Shown here: one piece after another, positions 14,812 to 56,730 of the stretch
How the letters are laid out: each line of letters begins with the position of its first letter
How positions within the stretch are numbered: the stretch's first letter is position 1
NCBI GenBank assembly: GCA_947644695.1
Contig: CANSAJ010000001.1
Span: 17,348-81,347 of the forward strand
Direction of reading: 5' to 3'
DNA length: 64,000 nt
From: an uncultured Bacillota bacterium
GTDB lineage: Bacteria; Bacillota_I; Bacilli_A; RF39; UBA660
Translations under genes and position numbers: made by a program
The notes under the pieces: generated by a model
Seen by the model: the letters and a program-made list of their open reading frames with translations, nothing else
What the model was told of the DNA's origin: nothing
Databases searched by the model: none

Positions 14812-14836
14812 ATATACGCTCCCTCTTTCTTTAGTG

Positions 14837-15142
14837 TTATTTTTTTAATTTTAATCTATGTTTATTCATATTTTGTTCTTCGTATTCATTTTTTGTCATG
14901 CCACAAATTTGATTATATATTTTTTCTATATCTATTTCTCTAGAAAATAATATGGTTCCATTAAAGTTGGTAAAATAACTATTTAATCCTTTTTTATGTA
15001 ATTTTTCTAGGAATGCTATTACATAGTCTAAGCTAGTACCTTCTTTAAATTCTACTTCATGTCCAGTTAATTTTATCCATTCAAGAATTCCATATTTATT
15101 TATAAATTGTTCTTTTCTCTTTTTGTAGCTTATAGGTTTCAT
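14837..15142 (-). CDS. Hypothetical protein (101 aa) occupying the ylxQ (L7Ae) slot but lacking L7Ae motifs
   Basis: Lies between ylxR and infB. The sequence does not match the L7Ae family. Confidence 0.35.
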   Translation of the reverse strand: MKPISYKKRKEQFINKYGILEWIKLTGHEVEFKEGTSLDYVIAFLEKLHKKGLNSYFTNFNGTILFSREIDIEKIYNQICGMTKNEYEEQNMNKHRLKLKK

Positions 15143-15151
15143 ACAACTCCT

Positions 15152-15412
15152 TTAATTAATTTTAGTTAATAATTTATCATATATTTCATCTGGTATTTTT
15201 ACTTCAAGATGACGTTCTAAGGCTTTTGATTTTCTGGCTTTTTCAATTACATCTGTATCTTTTTTTAAGTATGCGCCTCGTCCATTAGATTTCATAGTAT
15301 CGTCTATTATTATTTCTCCTTCAGGAGTTCTTACTATTCTGATTAGTTCTTTTTTTTCTAATTTTTCTTTTGATATTACACATGTACGCATAGGTATTTT
15401 TTTAGTTTTCAT
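15152..15412 (-). CDS. ylxR: YlxR/RnpM-family RNA-binding protein (DUF448)
   Basis: IPMRTCVISKEK... motif. 86 aa. Position directly after nusA. Confidence 0.75.
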   Translation of the reverse strand: MKTKKIPMRTCVISKEKLEKKELIRIVRTPEGEIIIDDTMKSNGRGAYLKKDTDVIEKARKSKALERHLEVKIPDEIYDKLLTKIN

Positions 15413-15420
15413 GAGTACTC

Positions 15421-16476
15421 CTATTTATTGATTTCTTCATTTATTTCGTTTAATGTTTTTATATTAAGTTTATATCTAGTTAGTTTACTTGCAAGTTTAA
15501 TATTTATTCCTTTTTTACCTATTGCTAAGCTTAAGTTTTCTTCATCAGTTATTACTAAAGCTTCTTTTTCTTTTTCATCCATTATACTTACATTTAAATT
15601 TTTTGCTGGATTAAGAGAGTTTGCAATAAATATTTCTGGATTTTCATCGTATAAAATTAAGTCTATTTTTTCACCATTTAGTACACTTATTATGTTAGCT
15701 ATTCTTCTACCTTTTTCTCCAATACAACTTCCAATTGCATCTACATTTGGATTAGTTGATGAAATAGCAACTTTACTTCTTACACCTGCTTCTCTAGCTA
15801 CTCCATGCATAAGTAAAAGTCCATCGGCAAATTCTGGTATTTCAAGTTCAAATAATCTTTTTACGAAACCATAGTGTTTTCTACTTAGTTTAATTGAAGG
15901 TCCCTTAGGAGTTTCTTCTACTTTAACTATGTATACTTTGATGCTATCTCCCATTTTTAAAGTTTCTCCTGGAATAAGTTCGTTTTTAGGTAGTATTCCT
16001 CTTGTTTTTCCTAGGTCTACATAATAGTTTTTGTTATCTTCCATAGCTAAGAAGCCTACCATCATTTCATCTTCTTTTTCTCTAAATTCATCCATGATGT
16101 TGTTTCTTTCTGCTTCTCTAATTTTTTGAAGTACAACTTGTTTTGCTACTGATATAGCTACACGTCCAAAGTCTTCTGGTTCAACTTCTGTTTCAAGTAC
16201 ATCTCCAATTGCAGCATCTTTCTTTATTTCTTGAGCTTCTTCTAATAATAATTCTGCATCTTCGTTTTCAAGTTCTTCAACAACTGTCATTCTTTTCCAA
16301 ATTCTTATCATACCATTTTCAGGATTTATTTCTGTACGAATATCAGCATCTTCTCTTGTGTGCTTTTTGTAAGCTGCGGCAAATGCATTTCCCATTGCTT
16401 CTGTTACAACTTCAGGATCTATTCCTTTTTCATTTACTATATAATCAAATGCTGTTTTGAATTCTTTGTTATTCAT
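15421..16476 (-). CDS. nusA: Transcription termination/antitermination factor NusA
   Basis: N-terminal domain, S1, and two KH domains (GxxG motifs). 351 aa. Canonical operon context. Confidence 0.93.
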   Translation of the reverse strand: MNNKEFKTAFDYIVNEKGIDPEVVTEAMGNAFAAAYKKHTREDADIRTEINPENGMIRIWKRMTVVEELENEDAELLLEEAQEIKKDAAIGDVLETEVEPEDFGRVAISVAKQVVLQKIREAERNNIMDEFREKEDEMMVGFLAMEDNKNYYVDLGKTRGILPKNELIPGETLKMGDSIKVYIVKVEETPKGPSIKLSRKHYGFVKRLFELEIPEFADGLLLMHGVAREAGVRSKVAISSTNPNVDAIGSCIGEKGRRIANIISVLNGEKIDLILYDENPEIFIANSLNPAKNLNVSIMDEKEKEALVITDEENLSLAIGKKGINIKLASKLTRYKLNIKTLNEINEEINK

Positions 16477-16771
16477 TTTCTGTTACTCCTTTACTGCATA
16501 CATCTAATACATATTCAGTGTCTAATTCACTTAAGTTTAAATTATCTATTATTGGGTTTATTATTTCTGCACTTTTTGCGCATAAGTTAGTGTCTACTTC
16601 GCTACTACTGTCTATTTTTATAAACAATGTAGTTACTCCATCTTCTTCTCCTAAAGTAATGTCGTAGATAGATACTCCAATTTCTTCAAGTGGTTCTTTT
16701 AATGCTTCTAATATTTTCTCTTTCATATGTTCCTCCTTTTCAAAAATAAACGAGTGGGTTTTGATTCCCAC
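16469..16771 (-). CDS. rimP: Ribosome maturation factor RimP (short form, N-terminal domain only)
   Basis: The 100-aa ORF matches the RimP N-domain (...YVLDVCSKGV ~ VSSPGLERPL). It overlaps the nusA start by 8 nt. The C-terminal Sm-like domain is absent. Confidence 0.65.
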   Translation of the reverse strand: MGIKTHSFIFEKEEHMKEKILEALKEPLEEIGVSIYDITLGEEDGVTTLFIKIDSSSEVDTNLCAKSAEIINPIIDNLNLSELDTEYVLDVCSKGVTENE

Positions 16772-16827
16772 TCCTTGTTATGTTTTAATTTTAACACATA
16801 AGTTTGGTTAACTCAAGTGTTAGTTTT

Positions 16828-17805
16828 TTATTTGTAATCTTTACTGTATTTTTCGTAAGCTTTCTTTAACTCAGTATCTTTAATTTCCATTTTAGCTTCT
16901 TCTCTCATTTTTATCATAGTTTTCTCATAAATGTTGTTATCTTCTTTTTCTTTTTCTTTAATGATACTGTTTTTTATTCTTGTTTCTAATGTTTTAAGTT
17001 CAGCTTTTTCATCATTTTTAATTCTATAAACTATATGATAACCATAGGCAGTTTTTACTAGTGATGATGAGTAGCTTTCATTTTTTAAGTTTTCTGCTTC
17101 TGTTTTGTAAGCACTTTCTAAATTAGAATCAAATTCTACTGGTACTTCTTCAGCTTTGATTATGCTACTGTATTCATTTTTTAAGTCGTCCCAAGATGTT
17201 CCATTTTTTAGTTTATTTAATATTTCTTCAGCTTTAGCTTTAGCATCTTCATCTTTCATTGTATTTGTTACTTCTACAAGAATGTGTTTAGTGTATATTG
17301 TTCCATAAACTTTATCATTGTAGAATGAATTAACTTCATCATCTGTGATTTTATTTGTTTGATATTCAGTATAATATTTATTTCTTCTGTAGTCTAATTG
17401 TAAATATGTTGCAAATTCTTCAAAAGTTTCAAATCCATTTCTTTCTAAGAATTGTTCTTCAGTCATTCCATATGCACTTTCATAATAACTTATATAACTT
17501 CTAGCAGATTCTTCGATTGATTTTAGGTCTTCATCATTTAACTCATATTTAGGTTCAAGTATTGTTTTGTCTATAAGTTCTAGCATACTATTAATTGCAT
17601 ATTTTTCTTTTAAATCTGTATAGAGCTTGTCTGCTGTTAAATTAGCATCTTTAAATTTAATTGCAACTTGTTCTCCATTTTTGAGTTCAGCTATTCTGTC
17701 TGGGTAAAATATAATCATTGTTAGTAGACCTATTGCAAGCCCGACTATAAATATTATTATTTGTTCTTTCTCAATATTTTTTATCTTTTCTTTTATGTCA
17801 TTCAT
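16828..17805 (-). CDS. prsA: PrsA-like foldase / parvulin-type peptidyl-prolyl isomerase, membrane-anchored
   Basis: N-terminal TM anchor. Parvulin signature (HILV..., GYHIVYRI). The likely true start is the internal Met (MNDIKEK), which is preceded by GGAGG 8 nt upstream. The supplied ORF starts 51 nt further upstream. Confidence 0.7.
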   Translation of the reverse strand: MNDIKEKIKNIEKEQIIIFIVGLAIGLLTMIIFYPDRIAELKNGEQVAIKFKDANLTADKLYTDLKEKYAINSMLELIDKTILEPKYELNDEDLKSIEESARSYISYYESAYGMTEEQFLERNGFETFEEFATYLQLDYRRNKYYTEYQTNKITDDEVNSFYNDKVYGTIYTKHILVEVTNTMKDEDAKAKAEEILNKLKNGTSWDDLKNEYSSIIKAEEVPVEFDSNLESAYKTEAENLKNESYSSSLVKTAYGYHIVYRIKNDEKAELKTLETRIKNSIIKEKEKEDNNIYEKTMIKMREEAKMEIKDTELKKAYEKYSKDYK

Positions 17806-17885
17806 AATATATCCTCCAAAGGTAATTTTACTATTATTTTTGTTTAAATACAACAAAGTAATGATATTTCACTATTTTTTCATAT

Positions 17886-18488
17886 TTATTTTGTAGGTAA
17901 AGCTTCTTCTACTGGTTTAAATGTTTTTCTGTGATATTTGCATGGTCCATATTTTTTTAAAGCTTCTATATGTTTTCTTGTTCCATATCCTTTATTATTA
18001 ATTAAGTCATACATAGGATATTCTTTATCCATATCTTTTAATATTCTGTCTCTTGTTACTTTAGCTATTATTGAAGCTGCTGCGATGGATTCGCTTAGGG
18101 CATCTCCTTTTATTATTGAAGTAGAAGGAATTTCTAAATCTAGTTTCATAGCATCAATTAGAACGTGTTCTGGTTTTATTTTTAAATTAGAAACAGCTTC
18201 TTTCATTGCTAATTTAGTGGCTTCATAGATGTTTACTTCATCTATAGTTTTTTCATCTATTATACCTACTCCAATGCTTAGTGCATTTTCATTTATTATA
18301 TCGTAGAGCATTTCTCTTTTCTTTTCTGAAAGTTTTTTAGAGTCTTTTATGTCTTTATGAAAATAATTAATAGGTAATATAACTGCAGCTGCGACGACGG
18401 GTCCGATTAAAGGACCTCTTCCTGCTTCGTCTATTCCACATATAAGTTTTATTCCTTCATTATAAAGTGCTGTTTCATATTCTAACAT
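17886..18488 (-). CDS. rnhB: Ribonuclease HII
   Basis: N-terminal DEAGRGPL(I)GP active-site motif. 200 aa. Confidence 0.9.
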   Translation of the reverse strand: MLEYETALYNEGIKLICGIDEAGRGPLIGPVVAAAVILPINYFHKDIKDSKKLSEKKREMLYDIINENALSIGVGIIDEKTIDEVNIYEATKLAMKEAVSNLKIKPEHVLIDAMKLDLEIPSTSIIKGDALSESIAAASIIAKVTRDRILKDMDKEYPMYDLINNKGYGTRKHIEALKKYGPCKYHRKTFKPVEEALPTK

Positions 18489-20341
18489 TATTTTGCCTTC
18501 CTTATTTCATTTTTTATTTTTTTGTATATGCTATTAGTGTCTAGTTCAAGTTCTTTTAATAGTTCTTCTCTTTTTCCTTGCAATACAAATGTATCTGGTA
18601 TTCCAAATATTGTTATATTTTTGTTTGTTATAGTTTTTAAATAACTACCTAATGAGCCTACTTTCATACTTTCTTCATAGACAAATATAGGTTTATTTTT
18701 TTTGATTATTTTATTAAAGTATTCTGTATCTATTGGTTTTAAAAATCTTGCATTTACTAATTCGATATTTATTTTATCTTTTTTAAGCTTTTTAATTATT
18801 TCTTTACTTTCTTCTACAAAGTCTCCATAAGTGATTAGAGTTCCATCAGAACCTTCTGTTATTTGTTCCCAAGTGCCTATTTTTATTTCGGTTGGTTTGG
18901 TTTTTTTGTAATCTATTTTATTTTTAGAATAGCGAATACAGAATGGTGACTTTGTGTTTATAGCTGTTTTTATTAAATTTGTGCATTCAATGCTATCTTT
19001 TGGAGAAGCGATTATAATGTTTGGTATAGGTAGTAAAAATGTAAGATCAAATATTCCTTGATGTGTTTCTCCATCAGCACCTACTATTCCACATCTATCA
19101 ATTCCTATAATAACATGTGAGTTCATTCTGGCTATGTCATGTAATACTTCGTCGTAACCTCTTTGTAAAAAACTAGAATATATAGATACAAAAGGGATTT
19201 TATTTTCTAAAGATAATGCATTTGCTAAGATTAATGCGTGTTCTTCGGCGATACCAACATCTATGAAATTATTTGGAAACATTTGCTTAAATTTGGTAAG
19301 TTTGCTTCCATTTTCCATAGCTGGAGTTATAGCAACTATGTCTTTGTTCATTAATCTTATAATAGAGTCACTTACTATTTCGCTCCAGGAAGTTTTATCT
19401 GGATTGTTATTTATGATTGTTCCAGAATCTTTATCAAATGGTCCTACTCCATGCCATTTACCTTGTCTATCATTTTCTGCAAATGGATAGCCTTTTCCTT
19501 TTTCTGTGATTACATGAATTATTACTGGTGCATTAGATTTTTTTGCAGCATTAAGATAAAGTTCTAGTTCATCAAAATCATGTCCGTTTATTGGGCCATA
19601 ATAATTGAGTCCTAGTTCTTCAAATATTAATCCTTCTTTTAAGTAGATTTTTTTGAAGTTATTTTTTAGATTTTTTATACCTTTATATAATGGCTTACCT
19701 AAAATTGGTATGTGAGACATTAATTCTTTTGTTTTGGTTTTTACGTTTCTGTAGTCTTTAGCACTTCTTATTTTATCTAAGTGGTTGTGTAGTGCACCTA
19801 CATTTTTAGATATACTCATGTTGTTATCATTTAATATAATTATTAATTTTGTTTTTGTTTCACCTATATGATTTAGTGCTTCATAACAAATGCCATTACT
19901 TATGGAACCATCTCCAATTATTGCGATTACATGATTTTTTTCTTTATTCATGTCTCTTCCTATAGCAAGTCCTAAAGCTGCGCTTAAGCTAGTTGAAGAA
20001 TGTCCAGCTTCATAAGGGTCGTGTTTACTTTCGCTTATTTTTTGAAAACCAGATAGGCCTTTGTATTGTCTTAATGTGTCAAACATTGGTGCTCGTCCAG
20101 TCAATATTTTGTGAACATAACTTTGATGTGAAACGTCAAAAATGATTTTGTCTTTAGGTGAATTAAATACTTTATGTATGGCTATTGTTAATTCAACTAT
20201 TCCTAAGTTGCTGGATAGATGGCCTCCTGTTTTAGATATGCTTGTTATTAAAAATTTTCTTATATCTGTACTTAAGTCTTGTAATTCTTTTTTTGATAAT
20301 TTTTTTAAAAATTTAGGATCTTTTATTTCATTAATATTCAT
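18488..20341 (-). CDS. dxs: 1-deoxy-D-xylulose-5-phosphate synthase
   Basis: 617 aa. TPP-binding GDG(S/A)...N motif (IIGDGSISNG), transketolase-like pyrimidine-binding and C-terminal domains. Confidence 0.93.
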   Translation of the reverse strand: MNINEIKDPKFLKKLSKKELQDLSTDIRKFLITSISKTGGHLSSNLGIVELTIAIHKVFNSPKDKIIFDVSHQSYVHKILTGRAPMFDTLRQYKGLSGFQKISESKHDPYEAGHSSTSLSAALGLAIGRDMNKEKNHVIAIIGDGSISNGICYEALNHIGETKTKLIIILNDNNMSISKNVGALHNHLDKIRSAKDYRNVKTKTKELMSHIPILGKPLYKGIKNLKNNFKKIYLKEGLIFEELGLNYYGPINGHDFDELELYLNAAKKSNAPVIIHVITEKGKGYPFAENDRQGKWHGVGPFDKDSGTIINNNPDKTSWSEIVSDSIIRLMNKDIVAITPAMENGSKLTKFKQMFPNNFIDVGIAEEHALILANALSLENKIPFVSIYSSFLQRGYDEVLHDIARMNSHVIIGIDRCGIVGADGETHQGIFDLTFLLPIPNIIIASPKDSIECTNLIKTAINTKSPFCIRYSKNKIDYKKTKPTEIKIGTWEQITEGSDGTLITYGDFVEESKEIIKKLKKDKINIELVNARFLKPIDTEYFNKIIKKNKPIFVYEESMKVGSLGSYLKTITNKNITIFGIPDTFVLQGKREELLKELELDTNSIYKKIKNEIRKAK

Positions 20342-20469
20342 ATTTTCACCTGTCAGTAAAGATTATAGTTTATTTTTTTTGTGTAGTCAAACTTTATTGT
20401 AGTGGTGATTTACGAATTTCTTTATTTTTTTTAATCATTGTGTTATTATTATATGGTAGGAGGATAAGG

Positions 20470-20952
20470 ATGAATAATGATATGAAAACTCGTGCTTATA
20501 TAAGCTATGGGAAAAGTATTGATGATTTAAAAGTAGGTAGTTTTACAGATGTACCAAAAGATGCGTTTGTTGCAGTTATTACTTTAGAAACACCAGTTAG
20601 AAAAGAAGATGGAACTGTTGAAATGCAAAGAGTGTATCATAGAAAGTTCTGTGGTAATAGAGTTCCTGCAAGTGTATTTTTGGATACATATTCTAGTAAA
20701 ATTTCATATATGGAACTTCTCGATATTAAAAAACAGGTAGAAGAAGGTAATCATAATGATTTAGTTGTTAGTTCTGATATTGGATATTTATCAGCACATT
20801 TGAGTTTTGCATTTGTTGATGATAGAGATTCTGTTGTTTCGAACTACGATGAATTCGTGGGTTCTATAATAGATTTTAGTAATAGATTTTGCAAGACTAT
20901 TGATATGCAAGAACCAGACTTAGGTGATGAAGTATCTAGAAAAGTTGGCTAA
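20470..20952 (+). CDS. Hypothetical cytoplasmic protein (160 aa); lone plus-strand gene with strong SD
   Basis: AGGAGG lies 7 nt upstream of ATG at 20470. The supplied ORF begins 30 nt earlier. GC is slightly higher than in neighbours. No recognisable domain. Confidence 0.5.
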   Translation: MNNDMKTRAYISYGKSIDDLKVGSFTDVPKDAFVAVITLETPVRKEDGTVEMQRVYHRKFCGNRVPASVFLDTYSSKISYMELLDIKKQVEEGNHNDLVVSSDIGYLSAHLSFAFVDDRDSVVSNYDEFVGSIIDFSNRFCKTIDMQEPDLGDEVSRKVG

Positions 20953-20984
20953 TATTAAGTCGGCTTTTTTTGTGTACTAAAAAA

Positions 20985-21032
20985 TACTATGAATGAACTG
21001 AACTCCAAAAGTTGGACAGTTTATTCATAGTA
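20985..21032. terminator. Compound palindrome acting as a bidirectional terminator between convergent genes
   Basis: Outer 16-bp arms (TACTATGAATGAACTG / CAGTTTATTCATAGTA, 1 mismatch) enclose an inner 5-bp stem (TCCAA-AAG-TTGGA). Confidence 0.45.
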
Positions 21033-21060
21033 TCTAAATATTAGTTATGTTAACTGGTTA

Positions 21061-21636
21061 TTATTCTTTGGTCTTTGATATTAATTCTTTAAATGAATTA
21101 TAATAAGGGACTAATTCATTCTTTACTATTACTAGTGATATAGCATTATATTTTTCATCCATTTTATATTCTAATTGTTCTAATTCTTTGCTTAGATTAT
21201 TAAATCTACGACCTAGTATAGAACAATAGTCAAAAACGCCTTTGGGATGAAGAAATTTATAGCAATCAGCATTGTATACAATTTCTGATTCTATGCTATA
21301 AAATTTATCTATTCCATGATGTTCTTCAACACATTTTATTAGATTTAGTTTTTGTTCGTCGCTTAAAATGTTAGTGTCCTTTAAAAGATTCTTTGTTGCT
21401 TCAACAGCCATTAACTTATGCTGTTTGGGATTTCCATTATATGAAGCTTCAGGTAATTTTGAATCCATCATAGATATAGCGATTTTTACAATGTTTTCAT
21501 CAGCATTAAACTGTTTGGCTAATTTTATTCCTGCTTCTAATGATAAATCATAAAGAGATTCTATTTCACTATTATACTTTTTTATTTCTTCTCTATTAAA
21601 TTCATCAGCTTTTAAAACTATTTCTTGAATATCCAT
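21061..21636 (-). CDS. Hypothetical protein (191 aa), possibly a degenerate HD-like phosphohydrolase
   Basis: His-rich segments (KQHKLMAV, EEHHGIDKF, KFLHPKG). No firm motif. Lies in the ftsY position after smc. Confidence 0.35.
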   Translation of the reverse strand: MDIQEIVLKADEFNREEIKKYNSEIESLYDLSLEAGIKLAKQFNADENIVKIAISMMDSKLPEASYNGNPKQHKLMAVEATKNLLKDTNILSDEQKLNLIKCVEEHHGIDKFYSIESEIVYNADCYKFLHPKGVFDYCSILGRRFNNLSKELEQLEYKMDEKYNAISLVIVKNELVPYYNSFKELISKTKE

Positions 21637-21660
21637 TATTTTCTCCTTAAAAATCTTAAT

Positions 21661-24603
21661 TTATGCCTTTATGTCTTCTAATTTAACGCTTACTAGTTTA
21701 CTTACTCCGCTTTCTTGCATTGTGATTCCATATAATAAGTCTACATATTCCATAGTTTTCTTTTTGTGTGTAATCACTAATAATTGAGTTTTGCCTTTGT
21801 ATGAATTTATGTATTTACCAAATTTTTCTACATTTACTTCATCTAATGCACTTTCTACTTCATCTAGTATTACAAATGGAACATTTTTTAAATTCATGAT
21901 TGCAAATAATAAACTTATGGCAGTTAATGTTTTTTCTCCTCCGCTTAGTAAACTTAGTGAACCAGGTTTTTTACCTGCTGGATTTGCTATTATTTCGATT
22001 CCTGTCTCTAATATATTTGTTGGATCTGTTAATTCTAGATGAGCTTCTCCTCCTCCAAATAAATCTTTGAATACTTTGCCAAATTCTGTATTTACTTTTT
22101 TAAATGTTGTGGCAAATTTTTCGATCATTACATCATCCATATTTCTGATAATTTCTAATAAGTTTTCTTCGCTATTTTTTAAATCTTCTTTTTGATTAGT
22201 TAAGAATGTATAACGTTTGTTGATTCTTTCATATTCTTCAATGCTTGCAAGATTTACTTCTCCAAGATTCTTTATTTCTCTTTTTAAATTATTTATTATA
22301 CCTCTTGCCTCGTCTATTTCTATATTAAGCTCATATTCATTTCTAGCGCGTTCGAATGTCATGTTATATTCTTCATTTAGTCTGTTTAGAAGATTATCAA
22401 GAGTTATGTTTAATTTAGCTTCTTTTAATTCAAGGTTGTTTATTTTTTCCTTGTTTTCTCTAATTATTGAGTCATACTTTCTCTCAACGTTTTCTTTTTC
22501 TTCAATTAGTTCGATTAAATCTTTTCTTCTTTTTTCTAAAGATGTTATTTTTGTTTCTAGTTCTGTTTTTTCTTTTTCTTTTTCATAGTAGTCTTTTAAT
22601 AGATTATCTAGCTCACTTGTTTTTGAAGTGTTATCTGATGTAAGATCTTTTATTTCAGTTGTTATATTTTCTAAATTATTTTTAAGTTCTGTTATATTTT
22701 TTTGTGTGCTTTCTATTTCTTCTTTTATCTTTATTAAATCTAGATTTGTTTTGTATATGTTTTCTTTTAAAGTTTCGAAAGTTTCGGTGTTGGTTTTTAT
22801 CTCGTGTTCTTTAAGTTCTATTTCTTTTTCAAATGCTTTAATATTGTTTGTTAAATTATCTAGTTCTGTTTTTTCGTTTAGATTATTGTTTTTTATAAGA
22901 CTTCCACCTGTTAATGATCCTCCAACATGGATGATTTCTCCATCTAAAGTCACTATTCTGTATCTGGCACTTATTTTTTTACTTATTATTAATGCATTGT
23001 CTATGTTGTCTGTTACTATAATATTTCCTAATTGATTAGATATTATATTTTCATAGGTTTTATCATATTCTACTAAAGATGAAGCAATGTTTATGAATCC
23101 ATTCATTTTATTTATTGTGTTATAAGTTTCATTATCTATGTTTTTTCCTTTTATTTGATTTAATGGGAAGAATGTTACGCGTCCTTTTTTGTTTAATTTC
23201 AAATAATTTATAGCTTCTTTAGCATCATTATCAGTTTTAGTAACTATATAATTTACTGCTCCACCTAAAGCTGTGTCAATTGCTAGACTATATTCATCTT
23301 TACAGTTTATTAAAGCTTCTATTCTATTTATTATTCCTTTTAATGACGGATTATTTAGAATACTTTTAACTGCAAAAGGAACTTTTGTCATATTTTCTAT
23401 GTTGTACTCTAGTATCTCTTTTTTACTTGTTGTCTCGTATTTTTTTCTTGTAGTAATATTTATTTCATTAGTTAATGTATTTATTTTGTTACTTATAGTT
23501 TTGTATTCATTATTTAATGATGATAACTTACTGTTTGTTGATGATTCATCTTCGTTTAAAGCGTTTAATTTATTTTCTAAATTTATGATTTCGTTTTTAG
23601 CTTTTAATTCTTGTTCTTTTAAATTATTTATATTAGTTTGAATTGTATCATTTGTGTTATCATATTTACTTCTTTCTTTTAGTAGTTCTTTTTTTGAATT
23701 TAAGTTATTTAGTTCTTCTGTTTTATTTAGAATGTTTTTTTGAGTAGTAGATATTTCTATATCTAAATTTGTTCTTTCTACTTTTAATGATTCTATGTTA
23801 GCTTTTTCTTTAGAATTGTTTGTACTTTCTTCAATTAAGCGGTTATTTAATTCTTCTTTTTCTTTTTTTGTTAAATTGTATTCTTCATTTAATGAGGCGA
23901 TGTCTGTTGCTATTAAGCTTACTTCTATCTTTTCTAGTTTTTCTTTATGTGTTTTGTATATTTTGGCTTTTTCAGCTTGTTCTTTTAATGGAGAAACTTG
24001 TGTTTCAAGTTCATTTATTATCATGTTTACTCGTTCTACATTATCGTTTGTTTTGGCAAGACGTCTTAATGATTCTTCTTTTCTTCTTTTGTATTTTAAA
24101 ACTTCTGCTGCTTCTTCAAGAATTACTCTTCTGTCTTCTGGTCTTCCTCCTAAAATTTCACTAATTTTTCCTTGTGGGATAATACTTAATGATTCTTTTG
24201 AACTAAATGAGTCTATAAATAAGTCTGTTATATCTTTAAGTCTTACTTTTTCTTTATTAATGTAGTATTCATTTTCTCCAGTTTTATATACAACTCTTCT
24301 AATTTCTATTTCAGTGTAATCTAGTGGTAGGCTTTTATCAGTGTTATCTAAAACTAAGGCTACAGATGCACTTCTAGCTTTGTCTCTAGTTGCAGAACCA
24401 TTAAATATTACGTCTGCCATTCCAGCACTTCCACGTAGTGTTTTTACAGATTGTTCGCCCATTACCCATTTTAAAGCGTCTACAATATTACTTTTTCCAC
24501 TTCCGTTAGGACCGACTATTCCTGTGAAGTTTCTATTTAATTCTAGATTAACTTTGTCTGCAAAACTTTTAAATCCATTTATTTTTATTTCTTTTATGTA
24601 CAT
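21661..24603 (-). CDS. smc: Chromosome partition protein SMC
   Basis: N-terminal Walker A GPNGSGKSN. Long coiled coils with a hinge (region around GKNID...). C-terminal signature LSGGEKTLTAISLLFA and Walker B ILDEVESALD. 980 aa. Confidence 0.93.
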   Translation of the reverse strand: MYIKEIKINGFKSFADKVNLELNRNFTGIVGPNGSGKSNIVDALKWVMGEQSVKTLRGSAGMADVIFNGSATRDKARSASVALVLDNTDKSLPLDYTEIEIRRVVYKTGENEYYINKEKVRLKDITDLFIDSFSSKESLSIIPQGKISEILGGRPEDRRVILEEAAEVLKYKRRKEESLRRLAKTNDNVERVNMIINELETQVSPLKEQAEKAKIYKTHKEKLEKIEVSLIATDIASLNEEYNLTKKEKEELNNRLIEESTNNSKEKANIESLKVERTNLDIEISTTQKNILNKTEELNNLNSKKELLKERSKYDNTNDTIQTNINNLKEQELKAKNEIINLENKLNALNEDESSTNSKLSSLNNEYKTISNKINTLTNEINITTRKKYETTSKKEILEYNIENMTKVPFAVKSILNNPSLKGIINRIEALINCKDEYSLAIDTALGGAVNYIVTKTDNDAKEAINYLKLNKKGRVTFFPLNQIKGKNIDNETYNTINKMNGFINIASSLVEYDKTYENIISNQLGNIIVTDNIDNALIISKKISARYRIVTLDGEIIHVGGSLTGGSLIKNNNLNEKTELDNLTNNIKAFEKEIELKEHEIKTNTETFETLKENIYKTNLDLIKIKEEIESTQKNITELKNNLENITTEIKDLTSDNTSKTSELDNLLKDYYEKEKEKTELETKITSLEKRRKDLIELIEEKENVERKYDSIIRENKEKINNLELKEAKLNITLDNLLNRLNEEYNMTFERARNEYELNIEIDEARGIINNLKREIKNLGEVNLASIEEYERINKRYTFLTNQKEDLKNSEENLLEIIRNMDDVMIEKFATTFKKVNTEFGKVFKDLFGGGEAHLELTDPTNILETGIEIIANPAGKKPGSLSLLSGGEKTLTAISLLFAIMNLKNVPFVILDEVESALDEVNVEKFGKYINSYKGKTQLLVITHKKKTMEYVDLLYGITMQESGVSKLVSVKLEDIKA

Positions 24604-25351: not shown

Positions 25352-25570
25352 ATGAAAAGACTATTTATAAGTTTTATAAGTATGTATCAAAGGATGCCAC
25401 TTCATTCACATTATAAGTGTAGATTTATTCCTACATGTAGTGAATATATGAAATTAAGTATTGATAGATTTGGTGTTTTTAAGGGTATATATCTCGGAAT
25501 AAAAAGAATAATAAGGTGTCATCCTGGAGGAAAATCTGGAATAGATATGGTGCCTATGAAGGAGAAATAA
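25352..25570 (+). CDS. yidD: Membrane protein insertion efficiency factor YidD
   Basis: YQRMPLHSHYKCRFIPTCSEY...RCHPGGKSGIDMVP matches the YidD family (CRFxPTCS...KCHP..GG.DPVP). Confidence 0.85.
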   Translation: MKRLFISFISMYQRMPLHSHYKCRFIPTCSEYMKLSIDRFGVFKGIYLGIKRIIRCHPGGKSGIDMVPMKEK

Positions 25571-26427
25571 TGAAAAAATTATTTATTTTATTTTTAAGTT
25601 TATTTTTGTTAACTGGTTGTATGGGAAGTAACGACGTTGCTGATGTTAAAACATATGCTACACTTTATCCAATTGAGTTTGCAGCTAAGTATATGTATTC
25701 AGAATTTAGTGATATATCAAATATATATCCAAGTGGTGCTGATATAAATACTTATGAGTTAACTGATAAACAAAAGGATTTATATGCTAATGGAGACGTA
25801 TTTATTTATGCAGGTGTTACAAATGAAGTTAATCTAGCGGTTAGATTTTTAAATACTAATTCTAATTTAAAAATTATAGATGCGACTAAAGGAGTTAATT
25901 ATAGTGTTGGCGTTGAAGAATTGTGGTTAGATCCATCTAATTATTTGATGATAGCTAGAAATATTAAAACTACTTTAAAGGATTATGAAACAAATATTTA
26001 TAATCAAGAGAAGATTGAAAAATTATATAATGAGCTTAAAATTAAGATAAGTGAATTAGATGTAGAGCTTACTATGATGGGTAAAAATGCTTCAAGACAT
26101 TCGATTTTAGTTACAGATGATGCTTTTAGTTATTTGACAAAATATAATATTAATGTTATTTCTTTAGATCCTGATAATTCTAATGTTACTAAGTCTTATA
26201 GTGATGCAAAAAAATTAATCCAATCTGAGGACATAAAATATGTTTATGTGATGAAAGGTCGTCAGATCTCTGAAGATTTAGAAGCCTTTATTGCTAATAA
26301 TAGTTTAGAAAAGTTAGAAATTGATACAATGTATACTTTAAGTGATGAACAAAGAAAAAATAATGTTGATTATTTACAAATCATGAATGATAATATAACA
26401 AAATTAAAAACAGAACTTTTTAGATAG
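25570..26427 (+). CDS. Metal (Zn/Mn)-binding lipoprotein of the ZnuA/TroA substrate-binding family; no cognate ABC permease or ATPase nearby
   Basis: Lipobox LLTGC after MKKLFILFLSLF. ZnuA-like pattern (PSGADINTYELTDKQKDLYANGDVFIYAGV). The likely start is Met at 25570 (RBS GGAG), overlapping the yidD stop. Confidence 0.6.
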   Translation: MKKLFILFLSLFLLTGCMGSNDVADVKTYATLYPIEFAAKYMYSEFSDISNIYPSGADINTYELTDKQKDLYANGDVFIYAGVTNEVNLAVRFLNTNSNLKIIDATKGVNYSVGVEELWLDPSNYLMIARNIKTTLKDYETNIYNQEKIEKLYNELKIKISELDVELTMMGKNASRHSILVTDDAFSYLTKYNINVISLDPDNSNVTKSYSDAKKLIQSEDIKYVYVMKGRQISEDLEAFIANNSLEKLEIDTMYTLSDEQRKNNVDYLQIMNDNITKLKTELFR

Positions 26428-26438
26428 GTTCTGTTTTT
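26406..26438. terminator. Bidirectional hairpin terminator spanning the 3' ends of two convergent genes
   Basis: Perfect 11-bp inverted repeat AAAAACAGAAC-11nt-GTTCTGTTTTT overlapping both stop codons. Confidence 0.45.
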
Positions 26439-27334
26439 TTACTTTGTATTTTATAGTAATAAGTAATTCCTGCTAATATTATTAAAATTGTTAAACCAGA
26501 TATGAATATTATAAATGAAGTATATTTAATTTTATTCACTATTTGTGTAATATAGTTATTTAAATTTATTTTATCATCAATACTATTTATTTCGATGAAA
26601 AGTTCATTGTTTGAAGATACTAAATTAAATAGTTCTTCTAAATTTTTATAATTATTTATTTCCACATTTAAACTTACTACTTCTAAATTATTTCTTTTAT
26701 ATTTATTTATTATATTTTCTGAAAAGTAAAATTCGTAATTTCTATTATTTCCACCTATAATAATTGATTTAACATTCGAGAAATCTTTATCATTTTCTGT
26801 TCCACCGTGTAATACATTCAAATTATCTATTCTTATACCTTTAATTGTCATGCTATATTTAGATTTGTTTTTTTCATTATTAATTCCAATTTCTAAATTA
26901 TTATTAATAATATTTTCATTTTCCAAAAACTTTTTAATAAATACTTTTAATTCATCTTTGTAATTATCAAAATTTGTATTCCCATTTTTTAACCACCTAA
27001 AATATTCGTTACCAAATTTTCCGTTAGTTATAATATTTACAAAATTTATATCTATTATTACTTCATTATTTTGTAATTCTGTTATGCTTTCGTTATTTTC
27101 TGTAAATATTTCATTTCCATTATTAAGAAATGTATTTAAATTTAAAAAATTATCATATACTTGATTGTTGTATATTATTTGACTTTTATAAATATTATTA
27201 TTAATAGAATTATTATCTTCTATTTCTAAAGACGAGAAAAAATCGTTTGTTACTAGCATTGTATATATTTCATTTAAATATTTCATTTTAAACTCTTTAT
27301 ATAAATCATTATAGTCTTTCTTGGCTTTTTTCAT
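26420..27334 (-). CDS. Asn/Ile/Lys-rich protein with C-terminal TM anchor; probable 3' part of a gene split by frameshift
   Basis: 304 aa of low-complexity N-rich sequence with a C-terminal TM (FIIFISGLTILIILAGITYYY). Its 5' end overlaps the upstream ORF by 26 nt in the +1 frame. Confidence 0.4.
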   Translation of the reverse strand: MKKAKKDYNDLYKEFKMKYLNEIYTMLVTNDFFSSLEIEDNNSINNNIYKSQIIYNNQVYDNFLNLNTFLNNGNEIFTENNESITELQNNEVIIDINFVNIITNGKFGNEYFRWLKNGNTNFDNYKDELKVFIKKFLENENIINNNLEIGINNEKNKSKYSMTIKGIRIDNLNVLHGGTENDKDFSNVKSIIIGGNNRNYEFYFSENIINKYKRNNLEVVSLNVEINNYKNLEELFNLVSSNNELFIEINSIDDKINLNNYITQIVNKIKYTSFIIFISGLTILIILAGITYYYKIQSKKTEPI

Positions 27335-27977
27335 GTGGAATTGATTTTAATATATCATATTTTTCTAAATTTTCATCAATTATTCCAGAAATTACTAAAT
27401 ATGTTTTGCCAATTTTAATTTTTTTGTTTGAGTTTACGATTTCTTCATAATTATTAGGTTTATAAAATTTTATATTTCCTATATCTTCTGTATATTCTTC
27501 TATTCCCTTTTCGATAATAGTATCTGCCAAGATTTTATGTATAATAACTTCATTTTTATTTTGTGGTATTTTCCCAATTATGTTTATTTTTTCAAATTCA
27601 CTTTCACTTAAAACTTGGAATTGAATTTCTGAATTAGATATTCCATCAAAAAATGCATTACCTAAGTTTTCACTTGCATATCCACTCATATTCAATCTAT
27701 AATAGAAATTATTTTCAAGAATTTTGATATTTTCTTTATAATTTAAAGAAGTATTTTCGAAGATTCTTTGTAAATCATTATTTAAAGATATAGAATCTTC
27801 ATCAGAGGCATTTCTAATTGTTATACTTTTATTTGTATTTCTAATATTAATATAGTTTTCATATAATAAAATCTTTTTCGCCAAGAATGAAAGAAAAAAA
27901 GTTAATATTGAAATTATAATTAACAAAATTGAAATGCTTATAATTATCTTTTTAATTTTATTTTTTGATTTAATCAT
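27309..27977 (-). CDS. Asn-rich protein with N-terminal signal-anchor; probable 5' part of the same frameshifted gene
   Basis: N-terminal TM (IIISISILLIIISILTFFL). It ends inside a T6/A6 tract (27326..27331). Removing one base there fuses it in frame with the downstream ORF. Confidence 0.4.
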   Translation of the reverse strand: MIKSKNKIKKIIISISILLIIISILTFFLSFLAKKILLYENYINIRNTNKSITIRNASDEDSISLNNDLQRIFENTSLNYKENIKILENNFYYRLNMSGYASENLGNAFFDGISNSEIQFQVLSESEFEKINIIGKIPQNKNEVIIHKILADTIIEKGIEEYTEDIGNIKFYKPNNYEEIVNSNKKIKIGKTYLVISGIIDENLEKYDILKSIPHEKSQERL

Positions 27978-28115: not shown

Positions 28116-30155
28116 TTAATTTTCAGCATTACTACAAGCTGTACTCAATGTATCTACTGTGTATGGATTATCGCTAGTTCCATCTCCACTTTTCCACATT
28201 ACGCATGATTTTAGGGATAAGACTGGGCGAACTGCAAAAGATTCATATCTACGATTCCAACCTAAATTACCAAACTTATAGGAATTTGTTACACAAAAGA
28301 CCATTGAATAATAAGCATCAATAACATCTCTCCAGAAAAAATCATATGGAGTCATTGTCCACCAATTGCTAGAACCAGTTACAGACGTTCCTTTTGCATT
28401 TAAATAGAAATAGGATTTTGAATTTTCATTAAGCTTACCCCCAGCAAAAGCTACTTCATCTGCTGTCATCAAAGCTACTGGCATATCCTTTAATGCTCCA
28501 TTTCCTGTGCTTGTACTTCCAGTAAACTTATCTGCTATATCTGCTCCATTTGTTCCTGTATACAAACTTCCACTTGCATTATTTCCACATTTATATGATG
28601 GAGAATTAGACTCTAATCTATATCTTGCTACAAAATCGAATGTTGCTGAGGTACTATATCCTGAATTTGCTCGATCATTACAATAGATTGCTGTTCTACT
28701 CACATATTCATTATAACTTTTTTTTATTGTTTTATTATACCATATGTCTATTACTTCCTTAATTGTAGATTTTGTGGTGTTATTTCTATTATTTGCTAAA
28801 TTTCCTGCAGTTCCATACATGTATCCTACATATATAGGATTAGGACCATCATAAACAGATGATATTTTATTATATACACTATATTCTATATATCCGACTT
28901 CTGTATTCACATCTGAACCTACATATAATAAACGTACACTTCCATCTTCATTTATACGAATTATTCTCCAATATAGTCCTGCAAAATATACCCAGTTATC
29001 TAATGCATTACCTGAAAAGTAGTATACTGTTTTTCCGCCTTCAGTCCATTTTCCACTTACTGTATATAATGTCTTTGTATTATTATCTTGAAATACTCCA
29101 CTATTTAAATTTGGTCTTGCTCCTGGTCTTGTTGTGTGATCTGCTAGGATTTGATCCTTTAATAAAGGTATCTTTTTCAATATTACTGTACAAATTTGAG
29201 ATGTTCTAATATTCCCAATTGATAGCGTTCCGCCATTTAGACTATGACTAGCTCCTCCTGTACATGTAACAGTTGGATTATTTAAGGTATAACCTGTACT
29301 AGCTGTTATTGTGAATTCTCCTGATTCACCATGGGCTACCATTACATTACTTGGCTTGATTGTTCCTCCTGTTATATTCATAGTTAAGTTATAATTTAGC
29401 TTCTCTGTAGTTATTCTACATGTCTGTGATGACGTTATCTTACTTATTGTTACTTTCTCTCCCTCTATACTTCCTACTGCTCCTTCATCACATACTATTT
29501 CATTATCTTTTAATCTATATCCTTTATCGAGCTTATATGTATATGTTAATGTTCCATTCTTTATCGTTTCCTGGGGATTTAGACTTGTTATAGTACCATT
29601 CTCCATCTCTAGTGTTACTTTATACTTTATATTAGGATTTATTGTACCTTCTGTAATATATAGTGTTCCATTAAACTCTTTTCCCATATCTATACTTTGA
29701 TCTTCTGGTGAATCTTTATATATAAATTCTATTGTATACTCATGAATATCTTTTGGATTTATATCTATATCATATGCTAGTATTATATCTTCTGGTGTAC
29801 TACTCTTTGGTATATCTGAGTATTCTGTCATATTATATCCATTACTTGAGGTTATCTTATATTGCAAATACCCTTCTGTTACAAATGTATTAATTAAATC
29901 TTTAAATATTATATTATAATTAAATACTTCATCACTTTCATTTTTTACACTAAATGTTTTTGTCTCTTTCCATCCTGGTATTATCTCACTACTTGATAGT
30001 TCATTATTATCTGTAAAGAGTATCCTTATATCTCTTGATGATATAGTTATATCTTTTTTATTTCCTCCTACTGTTCCACTAAAGTATGCATAGCTCATTC
30101 CTACACATAATAATAATGTCATTACTATTCCATATACTACAAACTTCTTATTCAT
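28116..30155 (-). CDS. Large secreted protein with SipW-cognate-type signal peptide, TasA/camelysin-like N-terminal domain, Cys-containing Ig-like repeats and an uncharacterised Trp/Cys-rich C-terminal domain
   Basis: The N-terminus ...LLCVGMSYAYFSG resembles the TasA/CalY signal class (..GTxAxFSD). IIPGWKETKTFSVKNESDEVF parallels TasA LKPGDKLTKDFQFENNGSL. There are two ~50-aa repeats with conserved Cys pairs (...SSQTCRIT.. / ..TSQICTV..). SD AGGAGAG precedes the ATG. Confidence 0.5.
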   Translation of the reverse strand: MNKKFVVYGIVMTLLLCVGMSYAYFSGTVGGNKKDITISSRDIRILFTDNNELSSSEIIPGWKETKTFSVKNESDEVFNYNIIFKDLINTFVTEGYLQYKITSSNGYNMTEYSDIPKSSTPEDIILAYDIDINPKDIHEYTIEFIYKDSPEDQSIDMGKEFNGTLYITEGTINPNIKYKVTLEMENGTITSLNPQETIKNGTLTYTYKLDKGYRLKDNEIVCDEGAVGSIEGEKVTISKITSSQTCRITTEKLNYNLTMNITGGTIKPSNVMVAHGESGEFTITASTGYTLNNPTVTCTGGASHSLNGGTLSIGNIRTSQICTVILKKIPLLKDQILADHTTRPGARPNLNSGVFQDNNTKTLYTVSGKWTEGGKTVYYFSGNALDNWVYFAGLYWRIIRINEDGSVRLLYVGSDVNTEVGYIEYSVYNKISSVYDGPNPIYVGYMYGTAGNLANNRNNTTKSTIKEVIDIWYNKTIKKSYNEYVSRTAIYCNDRANSGYSTSATFDFVARYRLESNSPSYKCGNNASGSLYTGTNGADIADKFTGSTSTGNGALKDMPVALMTADEVAFAGGKLNENSKSYFYLNAKGTSVTGSSNWWTMTPYDFFWRDVIDAYYSMVFCVTNSYKFGNLGWNRRYESFAVRPVLSLKSCVMWKSGDGTSDNPYTVDTLSTACSNAEN

Positions 30156-30172
30156 TACTACTCTCCTACTTC

Positions 30173-30239
30173 ATACGTATCTACAATACATATATACGTA
30201 TTTATAATACAATAATATATACGTAGCGTCAATACGTAT
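30173..30239. promoter_or_regulatory. Cluster of four ATACGTA(T) palindromic motifs (putative operator sites) in the divergent intergenic region
   Basis: ATACGTAT at 30173, 30194 and 30232, and ATACGTAG at 30219. The ACGT core is otherwise rare in this AT-rich DNA. The region separates the XRE regulator gene from the TasA-like gene. Confidence 0.35.
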
Positions 30240-30288: not shown

Positions 30289-30501
30289 ATGGAAATAAAG
30301 GTTAAAGAATATAAAGCTAATGAGATTTTAAAATTTATTAGACAGAGTACAGGGCTTACTCAAAAAGAGTTTGCTAAAAGAATTAATAAATCAGAAGCTT
30401 GGCAACAATCTAATGAGCTTGGTAGAACAAATTATTATTTTAAAGATTTAATTGAAATAGCGAAGTTATTTGATATTGAGATTATAATTAAGGGAAAATA
30501 A
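30289..30501 (+). CDS. XRE-family (Cro/CI-type) helix-turn-helix transcriptional regulator, 70 aa
   Basis: LKFIRQSTGLTQKEFAKRINKS is a classic HTH_3. It is divergent from the TasA-like gene, a SinR-tapA-like arrangement. SD TAGGTGA. Confidence 0.8.
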   Translation: MEIKVKEYKANEILKFIRQSTGLTQKEFAKRINKSEAWQQSNELGRTNYYFKDLIEIAKLFDIEIIIKGK

Positions 30502-30520
30502 AAACACTTTAAAGTGTTTT
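30501..30520. terminator. Perfect 20-nt palindrome (AAAACACTTTAAAGTGTTTT) between convergent XRE gene and ruvB; bidirectional terminator
   Basis: It overlaps both stop codons and is followed by a T-run. Confidence 0.45.
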
Positions 30521-31509
30521 TATTTTTCAATTCCTAAGTATTCATAAGTTTTATCTGTTACTTGTCTTCCTCTTATTGTTCTTTTTATAAATCCCTCTTG
30601 TAGTAAGAAAGGTTCTATAACATCTTCTATAGTTGTTTGTTCTTCTCCGATTGATGCTGCGATACTTTCTATTCCTACAGGTCCTCCATTGAATTTATTT
30701 ATTAAACTGTTTAAATATTCTATATCGGTATTGTCTAAACCATATTCATCAACATGTAATCTTTTTAAACTGTTATTAGTTATTTCTTTATCAATTATTC
30801 CATTACCATTAACTAGTGCGAAGTCGCTTACTCGTTTAAGAAGTCTATTGGCTATTCTTGGTGTTTTTCTACTTCTTCTTGCAATTATTTGTGCTGCATC
30901 GTGTTCAATAGTTAATTCTAATACTCTGGCACTTCTTTCTACAATTTGTGTTAATTCTTCATTTGTATAATAGTTTAATTTGCAAGTAATACCAAATCTA
31001 TCTCTTAAAGGACTAGATAAGTCTCCAGCTCGTGTAGTAGCCCCGACTAATGTAAATGGTGGTAAATCTATTTTTATGCTTCTGCTTTGTCCATCAGACC
31101 CTATAATTATATCTAATTTAAAATCTTCCATTGCACTGTAGAGAATTTCTTCTATGTATTTTGGTATTCTGTGTATTTCATCTATAAATAGAACATCATA
31201 AGGTTCTAATGTACTTAATATTGCAGCTAAGTCTCCACTTTTTTCAATTGTTGGTCCACTTGCTGTTTTTATATTTACTTCAAGTTCGTTTGCAATTATA
31301 TGAGATAATGTTGTTTTTCCTAATCCTGGGGGACCATATAGTAATACGTGGTCTAATGATTTACTTCTCATCTTTGCTGCGCTGACAAATACTTTAATGT
31401 TTTCTTTTACATCTGTTTGACCAATGTATTCATCAAATGATAATGGTCTTATTGTTTTTTCAAATGAATCCGATTCTTGGTATTCTCCTCTTATTATTTT
31501 TTCGTCCAT
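30520..31509 (-). CDS. ruvB: Holliday junction branch-migration ATPase RuvB
   Basis: Walker [10 protein letters not shown], Walker B LFIDEIHR, sensor motifs. 329 aa. Confidence 0.95.
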
Positions 31510-32166: not shown

Positions 32167-32370
32167 ATGAAGAAAAATTTAAAAAGAACATTAAGTATTA
32201 TTTTGTCATTATGTTTAGTATTATCTTTTTACCAAAGTGAAATCCTTGCTAAAGAACCAGAGACATTAGAAGATTATAAATTAGAGTATTGTGGTAAAGA
32301 ATATCCAGAAGATGACAAATTACAAAAAAATAAGAATAGAATTTATTCTAGAAGAAAAAGATTGTGTTAG
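32167..32370 (+). CDS. Small secreted peptide (67 aa precursor; signal peptide plus ~40-aa charged mature part with two Cys)
   Basis: MKKNLKRTLSIILSLCLVLSFYQSEILA signal. The mature part is EPETLEDYKLEYCGKEYPEDDKLQKNKNRIYSRRKRLC. A short hairpin AGATTG-7nt-CAATCT plus T-run lies at the 3' end. Confidence 0.4.
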   Translation: MKKNLKRTLSIILSLCLVLSFYQSEILAKEPETLEDYKLEYCGKEYPEDDKLQKNKNRIYSRRKRLC

Positions 32371-46705: not shown

Positions 46706-46838
46706 TTTTACCTCCTTTTGGTTGTTTTATCTTCAAGTTTAACATCCAGCTTAATTATATTATATTTTTCTTTAAATTAATAGTATGTAGAGTAATTATT
46801 TAGAAAAAGTGTGTTAAAATATGTGTGTAGGTGAAAAT

Positions 46839-47975: not shown

Positions 47976-47993
47976 AAATTGATCTAAGTTCTT

Positions 47994-48854: not shown

Positions 48855-48866
48855 ATTAAATTACAC

Positions 48867-51449: not shown

Positions 51450-51556
51450 CTATTTAAAGTATAACATAGATGACTTTTTTTAGAAAGGTCATTTATTAGT
51501 GTGAGTGAGAAAATTGGCATTTTTTGCCATATTTTAGGGAAATTTTTTATAGAAAA

Positions 51557-51577
51557 AAGAACTCAAAAAAGTTCTTT
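51557..51577 (-). terminator. Rho-independent terminator of polC
   Basis: AAGAACT-7nt-AGTTCTT stem overlapping the polC stop, followed on the minus strand by TTTTTCTAT. Confidence 0.5.
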
Positions 51578-56512: not shown

Positions 56513-56540
56513 ACACTAAAGACAAATGTCCTTAGTGTTA
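56513..56540 (-). terminator. Hairpin between antitoxin repeats and toxin gene (intra-operon terminator/attenuator, as in ToxIN loci)
   Basis: AACACTAAGGACA-tt-TGTCTTTAGTGTT, a 13-bp stem with 1 mismatch, followed on the minus strand by TTATTTGA. Confidence 0.4.
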
Positions 56541-56550
56541 CTTTTTTGAT

Positions 56551-56694: not shown

Positions 56695-56730
56695 TTTTAT
56701 TAAATATTACATAATTTCTTATGTAGTCTA

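Follow-up and report, generated by a model that had tools for sequence, protein, structure and literature searches.

The stretch of DNA considered here, a 64-kb window from an uncultured Bacillota bacterium, has a GC content of ~26% and, apart from one gap, its gene content is housekeeping. The genes include smc, rnc, ruvA/B, relA, secDF, comEC/EA and dnaE, as well as genes for a SNF2 helicase and a ZnuA-like lipoprotein, and homologues of polC and polA that were recognised by their similarity to a related locus, L081. The gap is bounded by ruvB (30520-31509) on one side and the znuA-like gene (25516-26427) on the other. It holds the target of this study, a minus-strand open reading frame (ORF) at positions 28116-30155 that has an ATG start and codes for a protein of 679 aa, together with a divergent gene for a 70-aa XRE protein and two orphan ORFs. 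A preliminary description of this DNA had reported the same ORF, which is confirmed in position, strand and length, and the strings that it quoted are all found in the translation (LLCVGMSYAYFSG; IPGWKETKTFSVKNESDE; SSQTCRIT and TSQICTV; SSNWWTMTPYDFFW...FAVRPVLSLKSC). The gene is a real, well-defined member of a large unstudied family that is built from known kinds of domain. The features of the target and its surroundings are collected in Table 1.

Table 1. Features of the target gene and the adjoining region, in window coordinates.
Feature	Position	Strand	Basis or remark
Signal peptide, residues 1-23	30087..30155	minus	sequence reading, family conservation, hhalign to TasA
TasA/camelysin-superfamily beta-sandwich N-domain (remote homology), residues 24-175	29631..30086	minus	
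Ig-like B-repeat 1, residues 176-253, Cys pair C222/C246	29397..29630	minus	
Ig-like B-repeat 2, residues 254-330, Cys pair C298/C322	29166..29396	minus	evidence as for repeat 1
C-terminal head, residues 331-679, predicted extended DUF6273 / C-type-lectin-like domain	28119..29165	minus	
Hypervariable beta-hairpin of the head, residues 602-637, putative ligand-contact site	28245..28352	minus	
Divergent gene for 70-aa XRE-family helix-turn-helix (HTH) regulator	30289..30501	plus	
TACGTAT cluster, candidate XRE operators	30173..30239		133-bp divergent promoter region
Two orphan ORFs downstream of the target	26420..27977	minus	

The protein starts with an n-region of MNKK, which is followed by a 16-residue h-region (FVVYGIVMTLLLCVGM) and a c-region that reads S-Y-A. 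This anatomy points to a Sec-type signal with cleavage between A23 and Y24 (SYA|YF). The residues A23, Y24 and F25 are each at least 90% conserved across the family alignment, and hhalign places A23|Y24-F25 on A27|A28-F29 of TasA. The signal had been assigned to the SipW-type class, an assignment that was not sustained. The threshold of TIGR04088 is missed by the target as well as by the relatives P0032 (12.5 bits) and P0186 (17.1 bits), both of which fall under the cut-off of 19, and what remains is a resemblance. A 16-residue h-region that ends in S-Y-A would suit any type I signal peptidase. The statement that the window contains no sipW gene was borne out by a motif scan and by phmmer with SipW and SipS queries, which revealed no ORF for an S26-type signal peptidase in the 64 kb; both queries were validated by the retrieval of SEC11A and SpsB/LepB from the PDB. 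Two further annotated neighbourhoods (L079/L080 and L081/L082) also contain no signal peptidase. Between ruvA and dtd there is a 67-aa ORF (32167-32370, plus strand) with a classical signal-peptide-like N-terminus (MKKNLKRTLSIILSLCLVLSFYQSEILA|KE), which, if real, suggests that a type I signal peptidase is present in the organism.

The relationship of the N-domain to TasA was traced through the relatives of the target. A search with residues 1-174 found 67 proteins. Peptidase_M73 (PF12389) is matched by 8 of 43 aligned close relatives at E <= 0.01 (best E 2.3e-11) and by 48 of 67 more distant representatives at E <= 0.001 (best E 5e-13), and the relative P0032 passes this family with 29.4 bits over residues 2-75. 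Alignment of the family profile with B. subtilis TasA by hhalign gave a probability of 66% and an E value of 5.7e-5 over 71 columns, in a register that pairs SYA|YFSG with TWA|AFND and IPGWKETKTF with KPGDKLTKDF. The TasA query was compared with the 5of1 match over its residues ~33-78. A PDB search with the N-domain profile returned TasA (5of1) weakly, with an E value of 0.55, in the same register. The AlphaFold2 (AF2) model of the N-domain, with a predicted local distance difference test score (pLDDT) of 84.8, consists of a helix at residues 3-30, a low-confidence stretch at 30-33, and nine strands. The model is a beta-sandwich with 8aur and 7ueg among its top fold matches, which is compatible with the TasA superfamily but not diagnostic of it. 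Additionally, the pLDDT of the monomer model is low at residues 21-40, which is only an indirect hint on donor-strand polymerisation. Taken at the level of remote homology, the profile evidence makes the N-domain a divergent TasA-superfamily member. The membership in PF12389 is transitive and applies at the superfamily level only, because relatives match the family while the target does not. The TasA-like N-domain of the preliminary description thus stands at that level, on the PF12389 matches of the relatives and the hhalign E value, and not at the level of the target itself, which reaches no TasA model.

The target shares several features with the TasA/CalY/camelysin family. These are an N-terminal Sec signal that ends in small-x-Ala and is followed by an aromatic residue and Phe, and first strands that are in register and include PG(W/D)-x-x-TK-x-F-x-x-x-N. 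The beta-sandwich predicted for the N-domain resembles the fold of the donor-strand filaments of the TasA superfamily, which include the TasA fibre (8AUR), the archaeal AbpA (7UEG), AbpX, and CanX, and CanX, like the target, has no dedicated peptidase gene next door. The N-domain of the target differs from TasA in that it is shorter (~150 aa), lacks helices after the signal in the AF2 model, and is a module of a 679-aa fusion, whereas TasA is a stand-alone subunit of 200-260 aa. The target locus also lacks a tapA-sipW-tasA-type operon.

The N-domain is followed by two Ig-like repeats, each with a Cys pair at 24-residue spacing. The two repeats align locally with a score of 91, compared with a mean of 27 for shuffled sequences (z = 12), and none of 1000 shuffles was as good. 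The repeats are all-beta and Ig-like in the AF2 model. The claim that the protein carries two Cys-paired repeats is therefore upheld by the z-score, but they are ~77 aa long rather than ~50 aa. Flg_new_2 (PF18998) matches residues 255-301 with 15.0 bits, which is below its cut-off of 23.6, and a sub-threshold Phage_spike match also falls in the repeat region; the relative P0029 passes Flg_new_2 at 2.6e-9. The Flg_new_2 / InlB B-repeat (PF18998) and the Listeria-Bacteroides repeat (PF09479) resemble the repeats of the target as ~75-aa all-beta units between functional domains of Firmicute surface proteins. The target differs from them in its sub-threshold score and in the Cys pair of each repeat.

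The AF2 model of residues 176-679 (pLDDT 89.6; predicted template modelling score, pTM, 0.81) gives the C-terminal head a fold that is common to the solved DUF6273 domain and to C-type lectin domains, and its closest solved structure is an IgA protease (PDB 9QA6). DUF6273 (PF19789) is passed by relatives of 38-41% identity, with 33.3 bits for P0032, 27.7 bits for P0011, and 35.0 bits for P0014. These matches cover approximately the 3' half of the family, the last ~85 profile positions, with the best stretches within positions 87-172. A sequence-level search of the PDB with the repeats and C-domain profile, built from full-length relatives, gave no match. The predicted fold and the PF19789 matches of the relatives indicate that the head is probably a DUF6273 / C-type-lectin-like domain, and the C-domain can no longer be called unassigned, as it had been. 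The description of this domain as Trp/Cys-rich applies only modestly, as there are 9 Trp and 5 Cys among its 349 residues. The invariant residues of the head include C492, C523, D494 and R495 (the CNDR motif), T564, D566, W598, R643, and P644, and the conserved motifs include YWRIIR, AIYCNDR, ALMTADE, WW.M.P, and VRPV.SLK. The most variable segment of the head, residues 602-637, is located between WWTMTP and VRPVLSLK and has an entropy of 1.65-2.27 bits and 23 inserted columns in the family alignment. This region is modelled as a beta-hairpin with strands at residues 598-609 and 614-622, and it falls where the relatives match the 3' half of PF19789. The closest relative is P0002, whose identity to the target is 77% overall, 100% in residues 26-250, 50-76% across most of the C-domain, and only 16% in residues 601-625. 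This mosaic pattern of identity points to recombination. The position and variability of the modelled hairpin make it a putative ligand-contact site.

The head can be compared with two known settings of DUF6273. The Thomasclavelia ramosa IgA peptidase ThomasA (PDB 9QA6; PMC12402451) is annotated as DUF6273 at residues 31-322, N-terminal to an M64 protease. Both ThomasA and the target are secreted surface proteins of gut Bacillota, and the two domains are similar in size, but the identity is only 16% and the family profile has no sequence-level match. Furthermore, the DUF6273 domain of ThomasA precedes the M64 protease in an SPXTG-anchored protein, whereas the head of the target is C-terminal and the protein has no C-terminal anchor. 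In phage tentaclins, the DUF6273 domains adopt a C-lectin fold and serve as targets of diversity-generating retroelements (DGRs), with the variable region on a surface beta-hairpin (PMC10743442). DGR variable proteins, which include tentaclins and Mtd-like receptor-binding proteins, thus resemble the target in a C-lectin-like head whose variability is concentrated in a surface beta-hairpin, and it is the 3' half of PF19789 over which the relatives of the target pass. In contrast to these proteins, the target was found with no DGR, phage context or viral relatives, and its diversity comes from many paralogs and mosaic recombination.

The family is large. A full-length search found more than 5365 relatives in a 90%-clustered database, mostly through the C-terminal half, and when 1.84 billion representatives were searched exhaustively with a profile, the N-domain turned up in 4130 clusters at E <= 1e-3, of which 2420 are at E <= 1e-10. 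In these ~4130 clusters the N-domain always begins at residue ~1-25 of the protein. The passenger domains on 67 distant representatives include Flg_new, ALK_LTK_GRD, Gp10_C, Flg_new_2, Big_3, Laminin_G_3, FGE-sulfatase, LRR_5, and Amidase_2. An N-terminal position combined with many different passengers fits a generic export and retention module. The median length of 134 N-domain representatives is 512 aa, and 64 of them carry the C-domain of the target. The dominant architecture in the scanned loci is an N-domain plus a C-domain in about 500-610 aa. The architecture had been put forward as novel; in terms of rarity this does not hold, since the N-domain with this C-domain is the commonest arrangement in a family of thousands. 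A literature search found no paper on TasA-like modules fused to passenger domains or on the family of the target.

A profile scan of genomes, for which a narrower N-domain alignment was used, revealed 78 loci, all of them in metagenome-assembled genomes (MAGs) of uncultured gut Bacilli / Bacillota. The sources are human (including Hadza and Nepali), mouse, and rabbit, and the labels include 'Clostridium sp. CAG:628', UBA11492, and 'Tenericutes UMGS1658'. A single MAG can contain at least 19 loci. In the MAG CAKOLN there are 19 loci with 19 distinct N+C paralogs, whose median identity is 64% in the N-domain and 50% in the C-domain. The MAG CAKOIS has 13 loci with 12 distinct N+C paralogs (78% and 44%), and the MAG UBA11492 has 8 loci with 6 distinct N+C paralogs (85% and 69%). 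The identity of the N-domain exceeds that of the C-domain in 217 of 252 within-genome paralog pairs. The N-domain also occurs as a stand-alone gene, for example a 177-aa gene (L013, 11519-12052) that lies directly after an N+C gene and before rpsB. The family genes are placed singly amid housekeeping genes at sites that differ between related genomes. In L081, a family member immediately precedes polC, within a block that is syntenic with window positions 46821-55877 (polC 65% and polA 67% identical), and the matching polC site of the window has no family member. In six loci (L018, L019, L032, L048, L061, and L063) the N- and C-domains are split over adjacent or overlapping ORFs, which may be frameshifted pseudogenes or assembly errors. 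If these frameshifts are real, they could indicate on/off switching of paralogs.

Taken together, the target is best read as a Sec-exported modular surface binding protein with a TasA-like base, an Ig-like spacer and a variable lectin-like head, which belongs to a multigene repertoire; the probability of this reading is put at roughly 0.6. The homology to TasA, an N-module that stays constant while the heads vary, and the occurrence of stand-alone N-domain genes together favour the N-domain as an export and retention module, possibly for polymerisation, and the head as the ligand binder. In the proposed mechanism, the signal peptide would be removed after Ala23, as the alignment of S-Y-A|Y-F with the cleavage site of TasA suggests. 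The C-terminus, as read from the sequence, has no LPXTG motif or transmembrane helix, and retention at the surface must therefore rest on the N-terminus. The N-domain would hold the protein there, most likely by joining TasA-type donor-strand-linked assemblies with other N-domain proteins, a tentative step that is less probable than the reading as a whole. Alternatively, the N-domain might associate with the membrane or wall. The two disulfide-capable Ig-like repeats would serve as a spacer, and the DUF6273 / C-type-lectin-like head would bind a ligand, either a glycan or a protein, through its hypervariable beta-hairpin. The target would be one member of a repertoire in uncultured gut Bacilli in which the N-module stays constant while the head diversifies by paralogy and recombination rather than by a DGR. 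Expression would probably be controlled by the divergent XRE repressor. The suggestion of a fibre or adhesin made in the preliminary description remains the best functional guess. An extension of this mechanism is a heteropolymeric 'display fibre' made of stand-alone N-domain subunits together with subunits that bear passenger heads (DUF6273, Flg_new, LRR, and others), the latter placed either in alternation or as caps. At least 20 genes per small genome, some of them under XRE switches, would then give ligand or antigenic variation without a DGR. Both the fibre of this composition and the variation that it would bring are on the unlikely side.

Several results weigh against the surface binding protein with a cleaved signal and a TasA-like base. 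Direct family searches with the target gave nothing significant in Pfam, NCBIfam or PHROGs, and neither a TasA nor a BsaA model was reached. The target has no match to Peptidase_M73 at E <= 1 (gathering score 22.5 bits) or to DUF6273 (cut-off 23.5 bits), and it does not reach the B-repeat model at threshold. There is no match to TIGR04088 even at E <= 10, either with the full-length target or with its first 84 residues alone, and at the same level these 84 residues match neither TIGR04090 nor the TasA model. The hhalign alignment with TasA is limited to the signal and the first strands. In ThomasA, the DUF6273 domain has no known function and no significant effect on catalytic efficiency (PMC12402451). 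In addition, AF2 predicts one helix for residues 3-30 that runs across the proposed cleavage site, and phmmer with SipW and SipS found no signal peptidase within 10 kb of the 78 related loci, a total of 1.15 Mb of flanking DNA. Because no signal peptidase gene turned up in the window or in this 1.15 Mb, dependence on SipW is unproven. These last results lead to the main rival reading, in which the N-terminus is an uncleaved signal-anchor and the protein is a monomeric membrane-tethered adhesin whose TasA-like domain forms a membrane-proximal stalk. The continuous helix, the lack of both SipW-type and LepB-type peptidase ORFs in the window and the 1.15 Mb, the lack of any other anchor in the protein, and the origin of the relatives, which come from small-genome gut Bacilli that in some cases are labelled 'Tenericutes', all agree with such a tether. 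However, the h-region is no longer than 16 residues, with a canonical small-x-small site (S21-Y22-A23) after it, and the highly conserved A23, Y24, and F25 align with the known cleavage site of TasA. The loci sampled cover a fraction of each genome, and the absence of a peptidase is therefore not established. The genome of a relative encodes a penicillin-binding protein and MraZ and is therefore that of a walled organism. The signal-anchor is regarded as doubtful.

Two other readings concern the enzymatic or viral associations of the domains. A camelysin-type (M73) secreted metalloprotease with substrate-targeting domains is suggested by the name of the Pfam family that the relatives match, Peptidase_M73, and by the IgA protease origin of the solved structure closest to the head. 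The target has only 4 His and no HExxH motif, and the metalloprotease is rejected because of this missing motif. Moreover, PF12389 has a fibre subunit, TasA (8aur), as its founding structure, and catalysis in the IgA protease belongs to the M64 domain, with the N-terminal DUF6273 domain having no effect on its efficiency. A protease is the least probable of the readings considered here. A phage-derived receptor-binding protein, or a DGR target on a prophage remnant, is scarcely more probable. The DUF6273 heads of phage tentaclins are DGR targets, the hypervariable hairpin of the target is in the same kind of place, and the gene has atypical codon usage and an adjoining XRE gene. In spite of these likenesses, the window contains no template repeat of the 3' region of the target, neither the window nor the 78 loci contain an ORF for a DGR-type reverse transcriptase, 2.9 million viral contigs contain no relative, and the target has no PHROG match. 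The flanks are also housekeeping genes (ruvAB, relA, smc, and rnc). A phage or DGR origin was rejected for lack of a template repeat in the window, a reverse transcriptase in the window or the loci, a relative in the viral contigs, and a PHROG match.

TasA-type proteins are known as small stand-alone subunits of biofilm fibres. Here, thousands of large fusion proteins of uncultured small-genome gut Bacilli start with a TasA-like module as their constant base, and the most frequent partner of this module is a lectin-like head with a hypervariable putative binding loop. If the base polymerises, Gram-positive gut bacteria would have a new means of presenting variable adhesins, and the TasA scaffold would have a new role as a 'display fibre'. 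In that case DUF6273 would also gain a function, as would its N-terminal occurrence in the T. ramosa IgA protease. Should no fibres form, a surface repertoire of at least 19 copies is still a strong lead on attachment to host or dietary glycans and is a source of strain-level variation.

The XRE regulator that the preliminary description placed next to the target is present as a divergent HTH gene. The 70-aa protein matches HTH_3 with an E value of 4e-4, just under the gathering cut-off, and phrog_8, a transcriptional regulator, at 3.7e-7. The TACGTAT cluster between the two genes consists of four sites, with three full ATACGTAT palindromes, and accounts for 7 of the 8 TACGTAT matches that the 64 kb contains. 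A promoter-like TTGACG-17-TATTAT sequence is located at 30232-30204 on the minus strand. L003, L042, and L063 each have a homologous XRE gene upstream of a family member, again in divergent orientation. Two of these loci carry operator-like inverted repeats of their own in this position: L003 has GTGTA-N7-TACAC twice and L063 has GTTAC-N5-GTAAC twice. The XRE gene probably regulates the target through the clustered ATACGTAT palindromes.

The codon usage of the target is atypical, as had been reported, with a scaled chi-square of 0.348 compared to 0.04-0.09 in minus-strand genes of at least 600 codons, an approximately five-fold larger deviation. The enrichment of TAT and GGA is confirmed and ACA is also enriched; ACT, however, is depleted (0.15 vs 0.40), which is the opposite of what had been claimed. 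The GC3 of the target, 0.16, equals that of the genome. The location of the target in an accessory island is plausible. The few plus-strand genes (for example 158-1054, 46821-47975, and 25516-26427) have codon deviations of 0.47-1.6 scaled chi-square, above all minus-strand housekeeping genes. This deviation probably reflects strand compositional asymmetry, which is to be allowed for when codons are used as evidence for islands.

The two orphan ORFs downstream of the target encode 222 aa with an N-terminal transmembrane helix and 304 aa with a C-terminal transmembrane helix. They overlap by 26 nt, have a GC content of 0.18-0.20, and are probably co-transcribed. Neither has a match in Pfam, NCBIfam or PHROGs. 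They were ruled out as conserved partners of the family, with 0 homologues among the 78 related loci, and a split or fast-evolving membrane protein gene is possible. A second copy of the family in the window was suggested by a weak tblastn match of residues 34-115 to a 1055-aa ORF; this match is due to chance, and the ORF encodes the SNF2 helicase.

The polC - polA - cation-efflux - HIGH_NTase1 block is kept between window positions 46821-55877 and L081 positions 12970-22631, with protein identities of 48-67%. The family member directly upstream of polC in L081 is P0032, a protein of 971 aa with two C-domains, and L081 has an extra NTP_transferase gene between polC and polA; neither gene is in the window. 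Finally, the intergenic gap from the SNF2 helicase gene to a 192-aa ORF that is located upstream of polC contains a tandem repeat, which has no Rfam match and folds no better than its shuffles (z = -0.03). The repeat extends over 56540-56719 and features four head-to-tail copies of a 36-nt unit (ACTTTTTTGATTTCCTGTCTCAGCCGGAATCGCTCA) that is G+C-rich for this genome, of which the first three copies are 96-100% alike and the fourth is degenerate.

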